Assembly (NCBI GenBank): GCA_963707435.1
Contig: CAVPPF010000005.1
Span: 70,832 to 134,831, forward strand
Direction of reading: 5' to 3'
From: an uncultured Actinomycetota bacterium
Lineage (GTDB): Bacteria > Actinomycetota > Acidimicrobiia > Spongiisociales > UBA4744
Length of the DNA: 64,000 nt
Shown here: piece by piece, positions 563 through 54,660 of the stretch
How positions within the stretch are numbered: the stretch's first letter is position 1
How the letters are laid out: every line of letters begins with the position of its first letter
The notes under the pieces: generated by a model
The model's input: only the letters and a program-made list of their open reading frames with translations
Told to the model about the DNA's origin: nothing
The model's database searches: none
Made by a program: the position numbers and the translations under genes

Positions 563-1441
563 TCAGCGAATGGTGACTTCGACCGACCCGTCCGGCCGCA
601 CAACCCGGCCATCTGCGTCCTCTTCGCCCTCTTCGGGAGCCGAGGTTCTGATCGTGAAGCAGAAGCGGCTGCCCGTCGGAAACCGATGCTCGTACCAGAG
701 ATCGCCACCCATCGCTCGAGCCAGCCGCAGTGCAATGGGGAGACCCAGGCCGATCCCCTTGTCGGATCGCGCGTCGCCCTTGGAAAGCTGCTCGAAGTGC
801 GTGAATACCCGGTCGACATCGGCCTCGGGTATTCCGGGTCCGTTGTCGGACACCACGACGAGGTAGAACTCACCGTACGGACTGCCCTCGACGAGAACCT
901 GGTCACCGCCGTACTTGTGGGCGTTCTCCACCAGGTTGCGCAGAACCTGCTGGACCCTTCGCTGGTCGGCATACACAGAGACCCCACCGGGTATCGCCAC
1001 CGAAGCTTCCCGAGCGGATCCGGGTGGGAGAATCGCATTCGTGACGTCGTGGGCGACGTCGGACAGGTCGAACACTTCCAGATCGAGACGAAGCCGGCCC
1101 GCCTCCAGCCGGGGAATCACGAGAACGTCCTCAACCAGCTCGGAGAGATGCACGGCCTGCTTGTTGATGATCGTCAGAAACTCGTCGACTTCCTCGCTTG
1201 GCAGGTTCTTCCACGACTCGAGGAGCGTGTCCGTGAAACCGGCAATGGAGGTCAGCGGCGTGCGGAGCTCGTGGCTGACCATCGAGACGAACTCGTTCTT
1301 CATCCGCCTGGCCCGATCGGCCGATTGGGTGGCGAACTTCTCTCGCCCCCGGGCCGCCCGCACAGCACGGAGCGCAGCCACGACGGCCGCGACGGCGACC
1401 ACTACGGCGCTTCCACCTATCAGTTCAGGCAGGTGCTCCAT
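563..1441 (-). CDS. Membrane-anchored sensor histidine kinase (single N-terminal TM, HisKA + HATPase_c, no sensor domain)
   Basis: 292 aa. H-box SHELRTPLTSI; N/G boxes NLVENAHKYG, DNGPGIP, GIGLGL. One hydrophobic N-terminal segment. Confidence 0.85.
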   Translation of the reverse strand: MEHLPELIGGSAVVVAVAAVVAALRAVRAARGREKFATQSADRARRMKNEFVSMVSHELRTPLTSIAGFTDTLLESWKNLPSEEVDEFLTIINKQAVHLSELVEDVLVIPRLEAGRLRLDLEVFDLSDVAHDVTNAILPPGSAREASVAIPGGVSVYADQRRVQQVLRNLVENAHKYGGDQVLVEGSPYGEFYLVVVSDNGPGIPEADVDRVFTHFEQLSKGDARSDKGIGLGLPIALRLARAMGGDLWYEHRFPTGSRFCFTIRTSAPEEGEEDADGRVVRPDGSVEVTIR

Positions 1442-4806: not shown

Positions 4807-6378
4807 CTATTCCCACTCAATGGTGGCGGGAGGCTTCGAGGAGACGTCGTAGGCGACGCGGTTGATACCCGTGACCTCGTTGATCACCCGGCTCGAGATG
4901 CGTTCGAGCACCTCATGCGGCAACCGCGCCCAGTCGGCCGTCATCGCGTCCTCGCTCGTCACGGCCCGAACGATCAGCGGATAGGCGTACGTGCGCCCGT
5001 CGCCTTGCACGCCGACCGTCTTGACCGCCGGAAGGACCGCGAACGACTGCCAGAGTTCCCGATAGAGGCCTGCCCGGCGGACCTCCTCGAGAACGATGGT
5101 GTCGGCCGCCGCCAGAATCTCGAGACGTTCCCGGGTGACCTCTCCGATGATGCGCACGGCCAGACCCGGTCCGGGAAACGGCTGCCGCCAGACGATCTCC
5201 TCCGGCAGACCCAACTCGGTTCCGATCGCTCGCACCTCGTCTTTGAAGAGGTCCCGGAGCGGTTCAACCAGCTCGAACGTCATGTCCTCAGGCAGGCCGC
5301 CCACGTTGTGATGGCTCTTGATCCTGGCCGCATCCTTGGTGCCCGACTCGATGATGTCCGGATAGAGGGTCCCCTGCACCAGGAAGTTGGTATCGGTCAG
5401 ATCGACCGCCACCTCTTCGAACACGCGAATGAATGTCTCCCCGATGATCTTCCGTTTCGATTCCGGATCGGTGACACCGGACAATGCATCCAGGAAGCGG
5501 TCTTGAGCCTTGACGTGGATCAGATTGATGCGGAACGTTCGCCGGAACGTCTCCTCGACTTGTTCGGCTTCACCGGCGCGCAGGAGCCCATGATCGATGA
5601 ACACGCACGTCAACTGGTCGCCGACTGCATGGTGAACCAGGGCGGCCGCTACCGACGAGTCGACTCCTCCCGACAGTCCACACATCACTTTTTCGGACCC
5701 GACCTGGCTCCTGATGGCATCAACCGACTGCTCGATGATCGAATGGTGGGTCCAGTTGGGCCGCAGCTGGCACACATCGAAGAGAAAACGCTTGATGATC
5801 TCGGTCCCGCGCGGCGTATGACCAACTTCGGGGTGGAACTGAACCCCGTAACGGCGCCCCTCGCGATGCTCCATCGCAGCTACCGGCGATCCGGACGTGG
5901 ACGCAACGACCCGGAACCCAGGAGGTGCCTCCACCACGGCGTCCCCGTGGCTCATCCACACGTCCTGGGTTTCGGGGAGTTCGGCAAACAGGCCGGAACC
6001 GTCCGCGACGGTGAGCTCCGTCTTGCCGTATTCGGCACTTCCCGTCCGGGCAACCCGGCCACCAAGCCCGTGGGCGAGCAACTGGTGGCCGTAGCAGATC
6101 CCCAGGATCGGCACGTCGAGATCGAAGATGTCCGGATCAATCTCGTAGGCGTCGTCGGCGTAGACCGAGGCAGGCCCTCCCGAGAGAATCAGACCGGACG
6201 GATTGAGGGCCATCACCTCTGCAGCCGTGATGTCCCGGGGAACGATCTCCGAGAGGACATGCGCTTCGCGGACCCGCCGGGCGATCAACTGGGCGTACTG
6301 GGCACCGAGATCGACGACCAGGACGCGATCGAAATCCCCCGTCGACGCCTGACCGAAGGAACCTTCCCGGGTGGTCAC
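4807..6378 (-). CDS. guaA: GMP synthase (glutamine-hydrolyzing)
   Basis: 523 aa. GATase-1 motif GICYGHQ, PP-loop SGGVDSSV, and a conserved C-terminal dimerization domain ending IEWE. Confidence 0.97.
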
Positions 6379-11455: not shown

Positions 11456-12859
11456 ATGACGCCGGATGAGTTTCGACAGCGCGGCCGGGAGATCATCGAC
11501 TGGATCGCCGGCTACATGGAGCGAGTCGAAGACTATCCCGTGCTTGCGCAGGTCAAACCCGGCGACATCCGCGCCGGTTTGCCCGAACATCCGCCCGCTT
11601 CCGGCGAGGACTTCGAACGTGTGGTTGCCGACCTCGACCGGATCGTCATGCCGGGCATCACCCATTGGCAGTCCCCCAGCTTCTTCGCCTACTTCAATGC
11701 CAATGCTTCTGGACCTGCGATCCTCGGGGACCTCGTCTCGTCCGGGCTGGGGGTTCAGGGCATGCTGTGGGCAACCAGTCCGGCCTGTACGGAACTCGAA
11801 ACCCACGTCATGGATTGGCTGGTGGAGATGCTGGAGTTGCCTCCGGCCTTTCTCTCGTCGGGGTCCGGGGGCGGGGTCATCCAGGATTCCGCCTCCAGTG
11901 CGACCCTCACGGCCATCATCGCCGCTCGAGAGGCCGCCACAGCAGGCGCGAGCAACCGTACGGGGGCTCGCGGCGACCTGGTCGCCTACACCTCAAACCA
12001 GGCACACTCGTCGATCGAGAAGGGCATCCGGATAGCCGGGATCGGCGGCGACAACCTCCGTTCGATCGAGGTCGATACGGCGTTCGCCATGGTGCCGGAG
12101 GCGCTGGAGAGGGCCATTGAGGACGACCTGGCTGCCGGCCTTCGACCCTTCTTTGTGTGTGCCACCGTGGGTACCACCTCGTCGACGGCCATTGATCCGG
12201 TCCGTCGAATCGGTGAGATCTGCCGCCAGTATGGGATCTGGTTGCACGTTGATGCGGCGCTGGCCGGGACGGCAGCCCTGCTCCCGGAAATGCGCTGGAT
12301 CCACGACGGCCTCGAACTGGCAGATAGCTACGTATTCAATCCGCACAAGTGGATGCTGACCAACTTCGATTGCACGGCCTTCTATGTAGCCGACCGAATG
12401 CGCCTCATCGGGGCCCTCTCGGTGCTGCCCGAATACCTGCGAAATGAAGCGTCGGCATCCGGGGCGGTGATCGACTACCGGGATTGGCAGATCCCGCTCG
12501 GCCGCCGTTTCCGGGCTCTGAAGCTCTGGTTCGTGATTCGTCACTACGGGGTCGAGGGTCTGCGTGCCTTCGTTGCCGAGCACCTGCGCCTTGCGGAACT
12601 CTTCGCCTCGTGGGTGGAGGCCGATTCCGATTTCGAGTTGGCTGCTCCAGCGCCCATCAATCTCGTCTGTTTCCGCCACACCGGCGGGGACGCGATCAAC
12701 CAGCGCATCATGGACGGCGTCAACGACTCGGGAAGGATCTTCATCACCCACACCCGGCTCGACGGGAAACTCACCCTGCGCATGGCGATCGGTCAGACCC
12801 ACACTTCCGAGCGACACGTCCGGCAAGCCTGGGAACTCATCCAGGAGGCGGCCGGATAG
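11456..12859 (+). CDS. PLP-dependent group II decarboxylase (aromatic-L-amino-acid / tyrosine decarboxylase-like)
   Basis: 467 aa. PLP lysine context SYVFNPHKWMLTNFDC. Matches the DDC/TyrDC family along its whole length. Confidence 0.85.
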   Translation: MTPDEFRQRGREIIDWIAGYMERVEDYPVLAQVKPGDIRAGLPEHPPASGEDFERVVADLDRIVMPGITHWQSPSFFAYFNANASGPAILGDLVSSGLGVQGMLWATSPACTELETHVMDWLVEMLELPPAFLSSGSGGGVIQDSASSATLTAIIAAREAATAGASNRTGARGDLVAYTSNQAHSSIEKGIRIAGIGGDNLRSIEVDTAFAMVPEALERAIEDDLAAGLRPFFVCATVGTTSSTAIDPVRRIGEICRQYGIWLHVDAALAGTAALLPEMRWIHDGLELADSYVFNPHKWMLTNFDCTAFYVADRMRLIGALSVLPEYLRNEASASGAVIDYRDWQIPLGRRFRALKLWFVIRHYGVEGLRAFVAEHLRLAELFASWVEADSDFELAAPAPINLVCFRHTGGDAINQRIMDGVNDSGRIFITHTRLDGKLTLRMAIGQTHTSERHVRQAWELIQEAAG

Positions 12860-13030
12860 GGCCCTACCGGTCCTGGTGAGTTGAGGCGCAGCTGCGGTTG
12901 CGCAAAGCGCGAAATATCACCAAACGGTGCCACAGTTTTCCTCGAACGGCGGAATAGAATCCGCGCGTTCGGCCGACCGGCCGGACACTGTGTACCGGGC
13001 ACCAACCCGGGAATACCGAAGGAAGGCACC

Positions 13031-13114
13031 GTGGCTGCAAAGAAGCCAGCACCCAAGAAGGCCGCTCCCAAGAAGGCGGCCCCCAAACCTGCCGCAAAAC
13101 CCAAGAAGAGGTAA
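13031..13114 (+). CDS. Small basic protein, 27 aa: (M)AAKKPAPKKAAPKKAAPKPAAKPKKR
   Basis: GTG start 5 nt after a strong SD GAAGGAAGG (13017-13025). Stop TAA 13112-13114. Perfect terminator 17 nt downstream. Lys/Ala/Pro repeats resemble actinobacterial HU (HupB) tails. Confidence 0.55.
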   Translation: MAAKKPAPKKAAPKKAAPKPAAKPKKR

Positions 13115-13130
13115 CGCTCTCAATGCCAGC

Positions 13131-13162
13131 GGTGGGGACCCGGATCCGGGTCCCCACCGTTT
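13131..13162 (+). terminator. Rho-independent terminator (perfect palindrome GGTGGGGACCCGGATCCGGGTCCCCACC + GTTTTG)
   Basis: 14-nt arms are exact reverse complements. Followed by a T-run on the plus strand. Confidence 0.65.
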
Positions 13163-13192
13163 TGTCACCGCCGCCGACTCGACCGGCGGCCT

Positions 13193-13774
13193 CTACGGGT
13201 CGATGAGCTCGCCCGGCGGCATGCGGGTCACCGGTGGCTCCAGCCCTACCAGTTGCCTGACCATGTGGGCCGTTGCCCCCCACAAGACCTCTCCCTCGAG
13301 ATCGAAGAACCAGACCTTATGCTGTCGCCACAACTCAAAACGCCAGCCGTCTGCAGCGGCGAAGATATCAACCGGCGGTTCAAGAATCTTGTCGACCTCA
13401 CGCGGGGACGGTTGGAGCTGAGGGACGCTCTTGATCCACCCGACCACGGGAACAACCAGCAGGGAGTACTCGATGGTGTGTATCGCCGGGAGGAACCCGA
13501 CGACGTCGACCAGCGCCGGGACGAGCCCCACTTCCTCTTCAGCCTCCCGCAGCGCCGTCCCCACGGGACCACCGTCACCATCGTCCGGGCGCCCGCCGGG
13601 AAAGGCCAGGTGCCCGGCGTGGGTGGGCATGGTCATAGGTCGCTTCGTGAGAATGATCCGCGTCACACCTCGCTCGTCGTCGTAGAGCGGAACGAGAACG
13701 GCGGCTTGTGGCAATGGACCGGGCGGCGGGGGTTCGGGTTGGATCCCGGGAAAGCGTCTGGAGAATTCGTTCAC
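13193..13774 (-). CDS. NUDIX hydrolase (CoA pyrophosphatase NudL-like)
   Basis: 193 aa. Nudix box GGRPDDGDGGPVGTALREAEEEVGL. Confidence 0.8.
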   Translation of the reverse strand: MNEFSRRFPGIQPEPPPPGPLPQAAVLVPLYDDERGVTRIILTKRPMTMPTHAGHLAFPGGRPDDGDGGPVGTALREAEEEVGLVPALVDVVGFLPAIHTIEYSLLVVPVVGWIKSVPQLQPSPREVDKILEPPVDIFAAADGWRFELWRQHKVWFFDLEGEVLWGATAHMVRQLVGLEPPVTRMPPGELIDP

Positions 13775-13809: not shown

Positions 13810-14427
13810 ATGGATGACCTGTCGACCGCTCCCCGATTCTCGCGCCGGTTCATGCTGCGCCCGTTCAAGCGCCGTGACGCCGACGAGATGGCAGAAGCCG
13901 TGGCGGCATCGCAGATGGAGCTCAACGAGTGGCTGCCCTGGGCTCATCTCGGCTATTCGAAAAGCGATGCGATCGGCTACATCCGCGACAGCCTCAAATC
14001 GTGGCGGGAGGAACGAGCCTACGACCTGGCGATTCGCAGGCTCGACGACCCGGACCGCCATATCGGCAACATCTCGGTCTGGTTCGTTTCACGATCGTTC
14101 AAGACGGGAGAAATCGGCTACTGGGTTCGCACCGACGAGACCGCCCAGGGAGTCGCGACCGAGGTTGCGGCCCGGGCGCTCCAGATCGCCTTCGAGGAAC
14201 TCAAGATGCATCGGGTGATCCTCCGGATCGCGGTCGGCAACCGGCCCAGCGAACGCGTTGCGGAGAAGCTCGGGTTCTTCCGCGAGGGAATCCTCAGGGA
14301 GGAGATCAAAGTCCGCGGGACCTGGCTCGATCACTCCGTATGGGGACTGCTCGAACACGAGTACCGCAAGAACCTCGGGTTGTACCGGGGTCTCATCGGA
14401 GCGGGCGAGGAAGTAGTCGAGAAGTAG
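13810..14427 (+). CDS. GNAT family N-acetyltransferase (RimJ/RimL-like)
   Basis: 205 aa. Acetyl-CoA-binding region RVILRIAVGNRPSERVAEKLGF. Confidence 0.8.
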   Translation: MDDLSTAPRFSRRFMLRPFKRRDADEMAEAVAASQMELNEWLPWAHLGYSKSDAIGYIRDSLKSWREERAYDLAIRRLDDPDRHIGNISVWFVSRSFKTGEIGYWVRTDETAQGVATEVAARALQIAFEELKMHRVILRIAVGNRPSERVAEKLGFFREGILREEIKVRGTWLDHSVWGLLEHEYRKNLGLYRGLIGAGEEVVEK

Positions 14428-30231: not shown

Positions 30232-30406
30232 CGGGTCCGCGTACGGTCCCGTCCACTCCGATGTGGCCTCTGTCACCGGGGTCACCCCCGGGCTTTGCTC
30301 CACACCGTCACGACCGTGGTCGCCGAGAGGGCATCCGCCGAAACTCGATACTCCCTCTTCCTCGTCACCCGCACCGCCTGTAAAGGGGCGCGGGCCGGGC
30401 GCTGCT
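30232..30406 (-). ncRNA. glmS ribozyme: glmS ribozyme (GlcN6P-activated self-cleaving riboswitch) in the glmS 5' UTR
   Basis: The minus-strand transcript reads ...AGCGCCCGG...GGGUGACGAGGAAGAGGGAGUAUCGAGUUUCGGCGGAUGCCCUCUCGGC...AAGCCCGGGGGUGACCCCGG. This matches the conserved core GACGAGGA-GGAG-UAUCGA-UUUCGGCGGAUGCC-UC-CGGC and the P4 stem of the glmS ribozyme family. Confidence 0.85.
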
Positions 30407-30509
30407 TGATGTGTCCGTTCCCGGTCACTTTGTCCAGCGAAGACTAGCGCTGCACGTGACGTTCACAACCGTGAATGCTCTGCGGCGGCCGGCGGGTCGA
30501 CTTCCCCGG

Positions 30510-50962: not shown

Positions 50963-51273
50963 AGCTTGATCTCCACTTCTACACCGGCGGGAAGGTCGAG
51001 ACGCATGAGCGAGTCAACCGTCTTGGGAGTCGGCTCGAGTATGTCGATGAGCCGCTTGTGGATGCGCATCTCGAAGTGCTCCCGCGAGTCCTTGTCGACA
51101 TGGGGCGATCGGATGACGCAGTAGCGGTGAATCTCCGTTGGGAGCGGCACCGGGCCCTTGATCTTCGCCTGGGTGCGCACCACCGTCTCGGCGATTTTCC
51201 GCGCGGACTCGTCGACCACTTCGTGGTCGTAAGCCTTCAGTCTGATGCGGATCTTCTGTCCTTGGTCTGCCAT
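50959..51273 (-). CDS. rpsJ: 30S ribosomal protein S10
   Basis: 104 aa. Confidence 0.97.
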
Positions 51274-51281
51274 GTTCGCTC

Positions 51282-51336
51282 AACTCTGTTTCGTTCACGT
51301 ACTCAGTACTGAGTACTAGGTACTGGGTACTCGGTA

Positions 51337-51339
<3 letters not shown>
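51282..51339. repeat. Heptamer-periodic array (CTNNGTA)x about 8 in the tuf-rpsJ spacer, overlapping the tuf stop codon
   Basis: caactct gtttcgt tcacgta ctcagta ctgagta ctaggta ctgggta ctcggta ctag. The final GGTACTAG supplies the tuf stop TAG. Confidence 0.9.
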
Positions 51340-52527
<1,188 letters not shown>

Positions 52528-52542
52528 GGGATAGCCTCCTGG

Positions 52543-54660
52543 TTACTCGCCGCGCACCCGGGCGACGATCTCCTGGGAGATCGAATCGGGCACGTCCTGG
52601 TAGGAATGGAATTGCATTGTGTGGGTCGCACGGCCCTGAGTACGTGACCTCAGGTCGGTGGCATACCCGAACATCTCGGCCAGCGGCACCTGGGCGGTGA
52701 CCACCCGGGCGTTGCCCCGCTGCCCCATCTCGTCGATTTTTCCGCGCCGGGAAGACAAATCCCCGATCACGTCGCCCATGTACTCTTCCGGAACCACGAC
52801 TTCGACAGCCATAACCGGCTCGAGCAGCTTCACGCCGGCCCGCTTGGCAGCATCCTGCAAAGCTATGGACCCGGCAATCCGGAAAGCCATCTCCGAGGAG
52901 TCGACATCGTGGTACGACCCGTCGGTGAGGATTGCCCGGACATCCACCAGCGGATATCCGGCCAGGATGCCCTGATCGAGGGCCTCCTCGATACCGGCGT
53001 CTACCGATGGGATGTACTCGCGAGGGACGTTGCCGCCCTTGATCTGATCAACGAACTCATAACCGCCGCCGGGACCCGTCGGCTCGAGGTCGATGACCAC
53101 GTGCCCGTATTGTCCGCGCCCACCCGACTGGCGGACGTACTTGGCGACGACTTTGCTCACCGGACCCTTGATGGTCTCCCGGTAGGCAACCTGGGGCCGG
53201 CCAACATTGGCGCCGACCTTGAATTCACGGATCAGCCGGTCGACGAGCACGTCGAGGTGCAGTTCGCCCATGCCGGCGATGATGGTCTGGCCGGTCTCTT
53301 CGTCGGTACGCACCAGGAACGTCGGGTCTTCTTCCGAGAGACGGTGCAGGGCATCGCCCAGCTTGTCCTGGTCCGACTTGGTCTTCGGTTCGATCGCAAC
53401 CGAGATGACCGGGGCGGGAAAGGTCATCGACTCCAGCTGGATCGGATGGGCGGCATCGCAGAGGGTGTCGCCGGTGGTCGTCATCTTCAACCCGATCGTG
53501 GCGACGATGTCGCCGGTATGGATCGTTTCGAGATCCTCACGGTGGTTGGCGTGCATCCGTAGCAAACGGCCGATGCGCTCTTTCTTGGCCGAGGTCGCGT
53601 TGTAGATCTGGTCGCCCTTGGTGGCCTGACCCGAATACACGCGGAAGTAGGTGAGCTTGCCGACATGCGGGTCGCTCATGATCTTGAAAGCCAGAGCAGT
53701 GAAGGGCTCGGTGTCGTCGGCGGCCCGCTCGAGGACGATGTCTTCCTCGCCCGGTTTGAAGCCCTGCACCGGGGGCAGGTCGGCCGGGCTGGGCAGGTAG
53801 TGGATGACCGCATCGAGCAGAGGCTGCACACCCTTGTTCTTGAAGGCCGAGCCGCAGAAGACGGGTGTGAAGTGACGCTTCAGCGTGGCGGTCCGCACCG
53901 CGGCATGCACCTCGGACGGCGAGATCTCGACTTCTTCCAGGAACTTCTCGAGCAGCTTCTCATCTACGTCGGCGCAGGCCTCGAGCAGCTTGCCCTCCCA
54001 CATACGGGCTTGTTCCTGGTACTCGGCGGGGATCTCGATGGTCTCCCAGTGCTTGCCGTCGTCGCCGCTCCAGATGTGGGCCTTCATCTCGACGAGGTCG
54101 ATGACGCCCTGAAACTCGGCTTCGGCGCCGATGGGCAACTGGACGGGAACCGGGTTGCCCTCCAGCCGATCACGAATGCTGTCGACGGCCGCAAAGTAAT
54201 CGGCCCCGATCCGGTCCATCTTGTTGATGAAGCAGATGCGGGGAACCTTGTAGCGGTCGGCCTGACGCCATACGGTCTCGGATTGAGGCTCAACGCCGGC
54301 AACCGCGTCGAAGACGGCAACAGCGCCGTCGAGTACCCGGAGGCTGCGCTCGACCTCCACCGTGAAGTCGACGTGCCCGGGGGTGTCGATGATGTTGATC
54401 CAGTGATCGCGCCATCCGGCGGTGGTAGCGGCTGAGGTGATGGTGATGCCGCGCTCCTGCTCTTGCGCCATCCAGTCCATCACGGCGGCGCCTTCATGGA
54501 CTTCACCGAGCTTGTAGGTCTTGCCGGTGTAGTACAGGATACGTTCGGTGAGCGTCGTTTTGCCCGCGTCGATATGCGCCATGATCCCGATATTCCGGGT
54601 CCGGCTGAGCGGGTACTGACGCAGGTGCGTCAGTGCATCGTTGCTCTTTCCGTTGCTCAT
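52543..54660 (-). CDS. fusA: Elongation factor G
   Basis: 705 aa. AHIDAGKTT... Confidence 0.98.

Follow-up and report, generated by a model that had tools for sequence, protein, structure and literature searches.

Sequence comparison points to a conserved, unannotated gene for a tiny lysine-, alanine- and proline-rich peptide in uncultured Acidimicrobiia

Gene model

We analysed a stretch of 64,000 nucleotides (nt) of DNA from an uncultured bacterium of the actinomycetotal class Acidimicrobiia (contig CAVPPF010000005.1, positions 70,832 to 134,831), referred to below as the window and numbered from its first letter. An 84-nt open reading frame (ORF) on the plus strand, running from a GTG start codon (13031-13033) to a TAA stop codon (13112-13114), encodes the 27-amino-acid (aa) product (M)AAKKPAPKKAAPKKAAPKPAAKPKKR, a polycation built largely from lysine, alanine and proline (K/A/P). 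Judged by comparison with related genomes, the locus is a real, conserved and unannotated gene for a tiny K/A/P peptide in uncultured Acidimicrobiia. The GTG at 13031, a Shine-Dalgarno (SD) sequence, the 27-aa ORF, its stop codon and a hairpin had all been claimed in a first-pass annotation and are seen in the window sequence. With the putative promoter and leader they form the following cassette, in which CDS stands for coding sequence:

12955..12960, plus strand: -10-like promoter hexamer TAGAAT, shared by all 11 copies at one alignment position
12967..13030, plus strand: conserved 5′ leader with helix 1 (12967-12986) and helix 2 (12990-13016), from the alignment and the predicted fold
13018..13026, plus strand: SD sequence GAAGGAAGG, ending 4 nt before the GTG
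13031..13114, plus strand: CDS of the 27-aa K/A/P polycation including the stop codon TAA, from the sequence and nine distinct intact orthologous CDSs
13130..13163, plus strand: terminator-like GC-rich hairpin (13130-13159) followed by TTTT (13160-13163), with compensatory pairs

In a program-made list of ORFs, where many high-GC frames overlap, the mini-ORF appears only as a 77-aa version with a TTG start (12881-13114). The first-pass expectation that automated gene callers would pass over so short a gene was borne out among the relatives described below: no gene had been called at the corresponding position in L146, L150, L156 and L160, only an N-terminally extended ORF had been called in L162, and the peptides are missing from a collection of 15 billion proteins (exact look-up of seven peptide versions, 0 found).

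Conservation in related genomes and evidence for translation

The mini-ORF occupies a slot between two convergent genes that served as landmarks for the comparison:

11456..12859, plus strand: upstream neighbour, a group II pyridoxal phosphate (PLP)-dependent decarboxylase (Pyridoxal_deC), which flanks the slot in every relative
13193..13774, minus strand: downstream convergent neighbour, a NUDIX protein (CoA pyrophosphatase-like), the anchor for collecting relatives
13810-14427, plus strand: GNAT acetyltransferase (Acetyltransf_3, RimJ/RimL-like), two genes from the peptide gene and conserved

The GNAT gene is the first beyond the NUDIX gene and is followed by groEL. Directly downstream of the peptide gene there is no co-oriented gene, the hairpin after the stop codon being followed by the NUDIX gene on the opposite strand, and the cassette itself holds no second gene.

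Because profile and homology searches are blind to the peptide, we gathered related loci (L001 and so on) by synteny: the decarboxylase served as query for a scan of genomes and the NUDIX protein for a scan of metagenomes, and NUDIX homologs labelled Acidimicrobiia were retrieved in twelve look-ups. Mini-ORFs were located in these loci by a composition scan and by an nhmmer profile of the cassette. Including that of the window, the same decarboxylase/NUDIX slot holds nine distinct intact CDSs of 22-33 aa: besides the window, L081 (22 aa), L150 and L162 (27 aa each), L086 and the shared version of L089/L090/L156 (28 aa each), L160 (31 aa), L001 (32 aa) and L082 (33 aa).

In the alignment, the start codon falls on one column in 9/9 intact copies (GTG, but ATG in L089/L156), as does the stop codon (TAA or TAG; 9/9). 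Insertions and deletions (indels) within the ORF measure 3, 6 or 15 nt and correspond to whole repeat units; those upstream of the start measure 1, 2 and 4 nt. Variable codon columns numbered 10, 6 and 27 of 32 for codon positions 1, 2 and 3 (chi-square p = 1.7e-4; 5, 6 and 25 in the first six sequences alone), and pairwise Nei-Gojobori (NG86) ratios of nonsynonymous to synonymous substitution rates (dN/dS) ranged from 0.04 to 0.21 among the mini-ORFs, values to be read in the light of a short and repetitive gene, synonymous sites near saturation between subgroups and sequences that are not independent. Taken together, the three-base periodicity, the low dN/dS, the in-frame indels, the exchange of GTG for ATG and the maintained SD and stop codon demand translation; by these comparative criteria, the peptide gene is translated and under purifying selection at the protein level.

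Conservation of the ORF, the SD and the terminator in related genomes had been proposed beforehand as a check, and the frame, the SD, the start codon, the position of the stop codon and the hairpin are all kept. The alignment likewise agrees with the earlier remark that the 77-aa in-frame extension has no coding character, as indels of 1, 2 and 4 nt upstream of the start stand against multiples of 3 only inside the ORF. A reading of the locus as the 3′ end of a longer gene, such as the 77-aa ORF, was ruled out, since the upstream frame is broken by these indels in the relatives. Similarly, a 299-codon open frame in L089 was dismissed as an accident of high GC content that overlaps the end of the decarboxylase gene in another frame.

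A composition scan of all six frames across ~1 Mb of related loci returned no unrelated free-standing K/A/P mini-ORF. Because the whole cassette is conserved in relatives, comparative evidence indicates that the mini-gene is far more than a chance occurrence.

Promoter, leader and Shine-Dalgarno sequence

The putative -10 hexamer occurs in three variants, namely TAGAAT, TACAAT (L089) and CAGAAT (L146). TAGAAT matches what we take to be the Streptomyces consensus TAGRRT; a scan with the sigma-70 consensus found no full -35/-10 promoter at the locus. From the hexamer and its spacing we infer both promoter activity and the 5′ end of the transcript. The leader begins 7 nt downstream of the hexamer, which places helix 1 at the predicted 5′ end, and its conservation exceeds that of synonymous sites in the ORF.

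Both leader helices are maintained in the alignment. Changes in helix 1 are confined to exchanges between U-A and U-G and between C-G and U-G, which are pairing-neutral only for an RNA of the plus strand; in helix 2 the stem is kept and the loop varies in sequence and length. Over the two leader helices and the terminator hairpin, 92.5% of alignment cells are paired (96.1% in helix 1, 86.9% in helix 2), compared with 27-56% after a shift of the pairing partners by 1-3 columns. The predicted minimum free energy fold leaves the SD unpaired, and the whole transcript has a predicted folding z-score of -4.5. Single-sequence folds of seven homologs recovered the helices in most cases, with modest z-scores. 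Helix 1 would be a 5′-terminal stabilising stem-loop, and its palindrome CCGGyCGACCGG may be a regulator site.

The SD of the relatives reads GAAGGAAGG or GAAAGAAGG, i.e. GAA(G/A)GAAGG, and lies 4-5 nt upstream of the start codon. Its duplex with an assumed actinobacterial anti-SD sequence has a predicted energy of -8.7 kcal/mol in the window and of -8.7 to -11.2 kcal/mol overall. The window value is stronger than those of four neighbouring genes tested and near that of groEL (-10.3), at a level that 12% of random 20-mers from the window pair as well.

Terminator hairpin

Downstream of the stop codon, positions 13130-13159 form the perfect 30-nt palindrome CGGTGGGGACCCGGATCCGGGTCCCCACCG, with 13-14 paired positions and a 4-nt loop. 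At 6/13 pairs both sides have changed with pairing kept, and 94% of cells are paired, from which the hairpin is judged to be under selection; situated between convergent genes, it may be used bidirectionally. A consensus terminator scan did not list it, the T-run being only 4 nt long. The run comprises four T in the window and L160 and five in L162, and is missing from L001, L086 and L089. Actinobacterial terminators often lack long U-tracts. Of the "perfect terminator" proposed at first pass, the perfect and apparently selected hairpin therefore stands; the T-run is short, not conserved and unlisted by the scan.

The closest relative, L081 (NUDIX protein 95% identical), departs from this arrangement: at 1120-1175 (minus strand) the ORF has shrunk to 22 aa and the terminator hairpin has lost its 3′ arm by deletion, with the stop codon ~40 nt from that of the NUDIX gene. 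This shortened state may be an assembly artefact.

The conserved leader and hairpin structures, the conservation of the leader above that of the synonymous sites of the ORF and the folding z-score of -4.5 would also suit a non-coding RNA or a purely cis-acting element (a small RNA, an antisense or terminator module, a leader peptide or an attenuator) in which the ORF is incidental. Such an element would leave unexplained the three-base periodicity, a dN/dS of about 0.1, indels of whole repeat units in frame, interchangeable start codons and the kept SD and stop codon; moreover, attenuation would need a co-oriented gene downstream, which is absent, and no Rfam family matches. We therefore regard an RNA with an incidental ORF as highly improbable, although the transcript may be a dual-function RNA that combines coding with an RNA role. 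With Rfam 15, no part of the cassette reached a gathering threshold and the sub-threshold matches were chance ones. Among these, a glutamine riboswitch on the leader (14 bits vs. a threshold of 35) lacked a counterpart in relatives and was dropped.

Peptide chemistry and searches for known families

The peptides contain 9-12 lysine and arginine residues and no aspartate or glutamate, and K/A/P make up 85-93% of their residues. Their predicted isoelectric points are 11-11.6 and their predicted charge is +8.5 to +11.5. The window product would be a chain of roughly 2.8 kDa with a net charge of about +10, composed of KKAAP-type units (KKAAP, KKPAP, KPAAK, KTAAK). Besides alanine and proline the peptide has no hydrophobic residues, and it contains neither a signal peptide nor a hydrophobic segment for export. 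As far as the aligned copies tell, it is the chemistry of the peptide that is conserved and not its exact sequence.

Searches for known families returned nothing. The peptide had no NCBIfam or Pfam match at E <= 10, the 77-aa extension had no Pfam match either, and a PDB sequence search with the peptide was likewise without a match. A word-indexed search of 5.8 billion proteins with the 77-aa ORF and an exhaustive HMMER search of 1.84 billion representatives with a 30-aa stretch gave no match, negatives that are weak in that HMMER penalises short, low-complexity queries. Our literature searches found no description of a free-standing natural K/A/P-repeat peptide.

Distribution, loss and the variable slot

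On a neighbour-joining tree of NUDIX proteins, the peptide gene is confined to one clade, whose members are about 78% or more identical to the window protein, and within this clade its distribution is patchy. Five lineages of identical synteny (L085, L159, L147/148, L151/152/133 and L153-155) have only 10-46 nt between the convergent genes. In L159 the 35-nt spacer retains CCCGGGAAGGCAACG, a remnant of leader and SD, which indicates that the gene was deleted there and that the spacer is not a target site that was never filled. A decaying copy is found in L146 (3100-3336, minus strand), the sister of L159 and of L162, the latter with an intact copy. L146 retains the promoter, leader and SD. Its stop codon has changed from TAG to CAG, which lets the frame continue into the NUDIX gene in antisense; the hairpin has gone, and several non-conservative changes (K to R/S/Q, P to L) have accumulated. 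On this phylogenetic pattern, the mini-gene is a young, dispensable, lineage-specific accessory gene that is strongly constrained where it is kept.

Other relatives carry different genes in the same slot, which by this comparison behaves as a small hotspot for accessory genes: a PemK toxin with a ribbon-helix-helix (RHH) antitoxin in L161 (2105-2676), AbiEi_4/DUF559/MTES_1575 genes in L157 (2862-3575) and L158 (1527-2435), and a 1.2-kb insert with two ORFs lacking Pfam matches in L149 (1316-2549). The peptide gene could thus itself be an accessory or selfish hotspot element, i.e. a toxin-like, defence-related or mobile-element-related factor, in keeping with these occupants of the slot and with its own patchy presence and absence. 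Yet it has no partner gene, its product is not hydrophobic like type I toxins, it is present in single copy in the 64 kb and in ~1 Mb of related loci, it has no border repeats, and viral contigs hold no free-standing K/A/P peptide. As long-term purifying selection within the clade and a vertical-looking synteny suit a host gene, we consider a selfish element quite unlikely.

Two possible origins were examined and rejected. Against a repeated or mobile element, a search of 1.04 Mb of sequence, the whole window included, with the nhmmer profile of the cassette gave orthologous copies and nothing else. Against a phage origin, a degenerate start-anchored pattern led to 25 viral contigs, 0 of which had a free-standing K/A/P peptide.

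The same viral contigs yielded a recurrent protein of ~66 aa that begins with MPAKKAAPKKK and continues with the non-repetitive stretches ...STVNSAGNYTKPAMRKRLFNKIKAGSKGG...GQWSARKAQMLAKEYKAAGGGYRD, the K/A/P part being a short N-terminal tail only. Its carriers are L163 (9161-9190, minus strand), L164, L167, L169, L170, L172, L174, L176, L185 and L186.

Comparison with known polycations

The first-pass annotation had likened the peptide to the PAKKA-repeat tails of HU and histone H1. The likeness stands for composition and fails as homology: it is an analogy, with no HU or H1 domain involved. The HU fold (Bac_DNA_binding) is absent from the 27-aa product, and no HU gene or motif was found anywhere in the 64-kb window.

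PAKKA tails on Hlp/HU and Ku modulate DNA binding and promote DNA bridging and end-joining, and their repeated evolution has been put forward as a response to stress (PMC3553676); DNA binding or bridging by PAKKA/KAAK-type tails is, at least in part, also the subject of further papers (PMC9760754, PMC11229371). Like the peptide, the tails of actinobacterial HU (HupB/MDP1/Hlp, HupS), of Mycobacterium smegmatis Ku and of mycobacterial TopA occur in Actinomycetota, consist of positively charged, disordered K/A/P repeats of the pentapeptide type and change rapidly as repeat units are gained and lost. Unlike it, they invariably extend a folded domain, either DNA-binding or enzymatic, whereas here the repeat is the entire product, with a putative promoter, an SD and a terminator of its own. 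The resemblance is likely to be convergent; homology cannot be shown.

A synthetic counterpart exists as well. The (PAKKA)4 20-mer derived from the mycobacterial Ku tail is kept disordered by its prolines, binds the minor groove of DNA and condenses DNA; one or two PAKKA repeats do not bind, and at least 3-4 are needed (PMC10739243). This free peptide, Ku-P4, has essentially the same composition as the natural peptides and a similar length, and their 9-12 basic residues exceed its binding threshold. It is, however, a man-made transfection reagent, tested at low ionic strength, whose complexes start to dissociate at 250 mM NaCl (PMC10739243) and which is not known to have a role inside bacterial cells.

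Among stand-alone proteins, the closest precedents come from the small-cell variant of Coxiella burnetii: ScvA, of about 30 aa, and Hq1, both termed "small basic DNA binding proteins" (PMC4766238). A sequence relationship to them is not expected. ScvA resembles the peptide in being stand-alone, very small and very basic, and it is associated with the condensed nucleoid. It is rich in arginine and glutamine, is not a K/A/P repeat and forms part of a developmental programme in a gammaproteobacterium.

The C-terminal domain of histone H1 and bacterial H1-like proteins share with the peptide a K/A/P-rich, disordered and polyanion-neutralising character, but the latter are 100-350 aa long, some with globular domains, as against 22-33 aa here. 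Examples are Hc1/Hc2 of Chlamydia and BpH1 of Bordetella. The Pfam models H1, Hc1 and HC2 did not match the peptide.

Finally, bS22 (33 aa) and bL37 (24 aa) are tiny basic ribosomal proteins of Actinobacteria that long went unannotated; bS22 is non-essential, and both are conserved throughout the phylum with specific contacts to ribosomal RNA (rRNA) (PMC10081302). They share the size and basicity of the peptide but are non-repetitive, whereas the peptide is clade-restricted and variable in length; their curated NCBIfam models gave no match to it at E <= 10. Since no domain or model matches and the distribution is wrong for ribosomal proteins, the peptide is, on present models, not a member of the HU, H1/Hc1/HC2 or bS22/bL37 families.

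The comparison with bS22 and bL37 raises the alternative of a ribosome- or RNA-associated micro-protein, i.e. an accessory ribosomal or RNA-chaperone polycation. Beyond the size and basicity of these proteins (PMC10081302), the compact and strongly expressed-looking architecture of the gene and the RimJ/RimL-like GNAT gene two genes away would fit. Relatives without the peptide gene carry this GNAT gene too, however, so that no dedicated link between the two is shown. A narrow clade, loss in sister lineages and repeat-unit variation between 22 and 33 aa suit non-specific binding better than a defined rRNA pocket, and there is no NCBIfam or Pfam match. We rate a ribosomal or RNA-bound accessory protein as rather unlikely.

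Proposed function

The reading we favour, at a probability of about 0.55, is that of an independent, translated micro-gene whose product would act in trans as a non-specific polyanion binder, with DNA as its likeliest target. According to this model, TAGAAT (12955-12960) would drive a transcript of ~195 nt that starts with the stem-loop at 12967-12986, exposes the strong SD, encodes the 27-aa peptide and ends with the GC-rich hairpin. The peptide would be intrinsically disordered and unable to fold, its prolines blocking helix formation, and would bind electrostatically and non-specifically to a cellular polyanion, for which chromosomal DNA is the first candidate. Contacts with the minor groove and the backbone would neutralise charge and compact or bridge the DNA. 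The peptide would in this manner be a trans-acting counterpart of elements that work in cis, namely the PAKKA tails carried by HU/Hlp, Ku and TopA and the C-terminal domain of histone H1.

Several points weigh against this interpretation. The target is deduced from composition alone, which would suit RNA or ribosomes, polyphosphate or anionic polymers of the envelope just as well, and peptide abundance, too, is a prediction from the locus. No homolog or family is detectable by sequence, in searches nearly blind to such short, low-complexity queries. The gene is gone or decaying in close relatives, from which it appears that its product cannot be a core chromatin component. The first-pass suggestion of a nucleoid- or ribosome-associated polycation may nevertheless hold in its nucleoid form; its ribosomal form is made less likely by the patchy distribution and variable length of the gene.

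The generic chemistry of the peptide would also allow other polyanionic targets (polyphosphate granules, anionic envelope or storage polymers) or a role as a polyamine-like counter-ion or stress protectant. A precedent is AlgP of Pseudomonas, an H1-like K/P/A-repeat protein that is reported to facilitate even spacing of polyphosphate granules (10.1101/2021.08.24.457604 / PMC9239181), and an accessory, patchy distribution would suit a niche-specific stress role. The conserved neighbourhood, however, contains no polyphosphate, polyhydroxyalkanoate or envelope gene, and the peptide lacks a signal peptide or hydrophobic segment for export. By sequence alone this possibility is indistinguishable from the favoured one; we hold it to be unlikely.

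Going beyond the favoured reading of a trans-acting DNA binder, the locus might represent the first natural family of free-standing micro-proteins (22-33 aa) resembling PAKKA or H1 tails, a "bacterial protamine" that compacts or protects the nucleoid in trans and arose recently, possibly de novo, in an intergenic slot. This proposal is tentative, and we think it somewhat doubtful. If it were true, lysine-rich DNA-binding tails could exist and be selected as independent genes, and such genes would be a possible source of the tails repeatedly added to HU, Ku, TopA and H1, suggesting gene fusion as a route of tail acquisition. Low-complexity K/A/P tails are known solely attached to folded proteins such as HU/Hlp, Ku, TopA and histone H1. 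A stand-alone tail gene would mean that the polycation module is functional by itself in vivo and would offer a natural system, reduced to the minimum, in which to study the organisation of bacterial DNA or RNA by disordered polycations. The scope of these implications is limited by a narrow, uncultured clade, by the dispensability of the gene in sister lineages and by a function deduced indirectly. From a methodological viewpoint, a conserved gene of fewer than 30 codons and low complexity is missed by current gene callers and by all profile libraries, a case that argues for composition-aware, synteny-based discovery of short ORFs in high-GC genomes.

Other features of the window and of related loci

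The decarboxylase (11456-12859, plus strand) has homologs of 62-75% identity in metagenome-assembled genomes labelled Acidobacteriota, Chloroflexota, Planctomycetota, Gemmatimonadota, cyanobacteria and Gammaproteobacteria (loci L002-L080), a pattern that suggests a wide horizontal spread of the gene. In L032, a Terriglobia metagenome-assembled genome, the neighbour of a decarboxylase homolog (5655-6053, minus strand) encodes a protein of at least 132 aa whose long C-terminal tail is rich in K/A/P (...KPASKAKAAKPKKAKAVKKAKTRKPAKKKSKPAKKAAKKKAGKKKSRRR). The occurrence of such a tail beside a decarboxylase homolog is probably coincidental.

Across the whole window, the glmS glucosamine-6-phosphate ribozyme (30250-30414, minus strand; 90 bits vs. 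a gathering threshold of 37) is the sole Rfam family above its gathering threshold, and the 64 kb contain no transfer RNA genes. GC skew is strongly negative (-0.24) over 51001-53000 and about 0 to -0.1 elsewhere in the window; near this stretch, the minus strand carries two ribosomal protein genes, rplB at ~49 kb and rpsL at ~55.5 kb.

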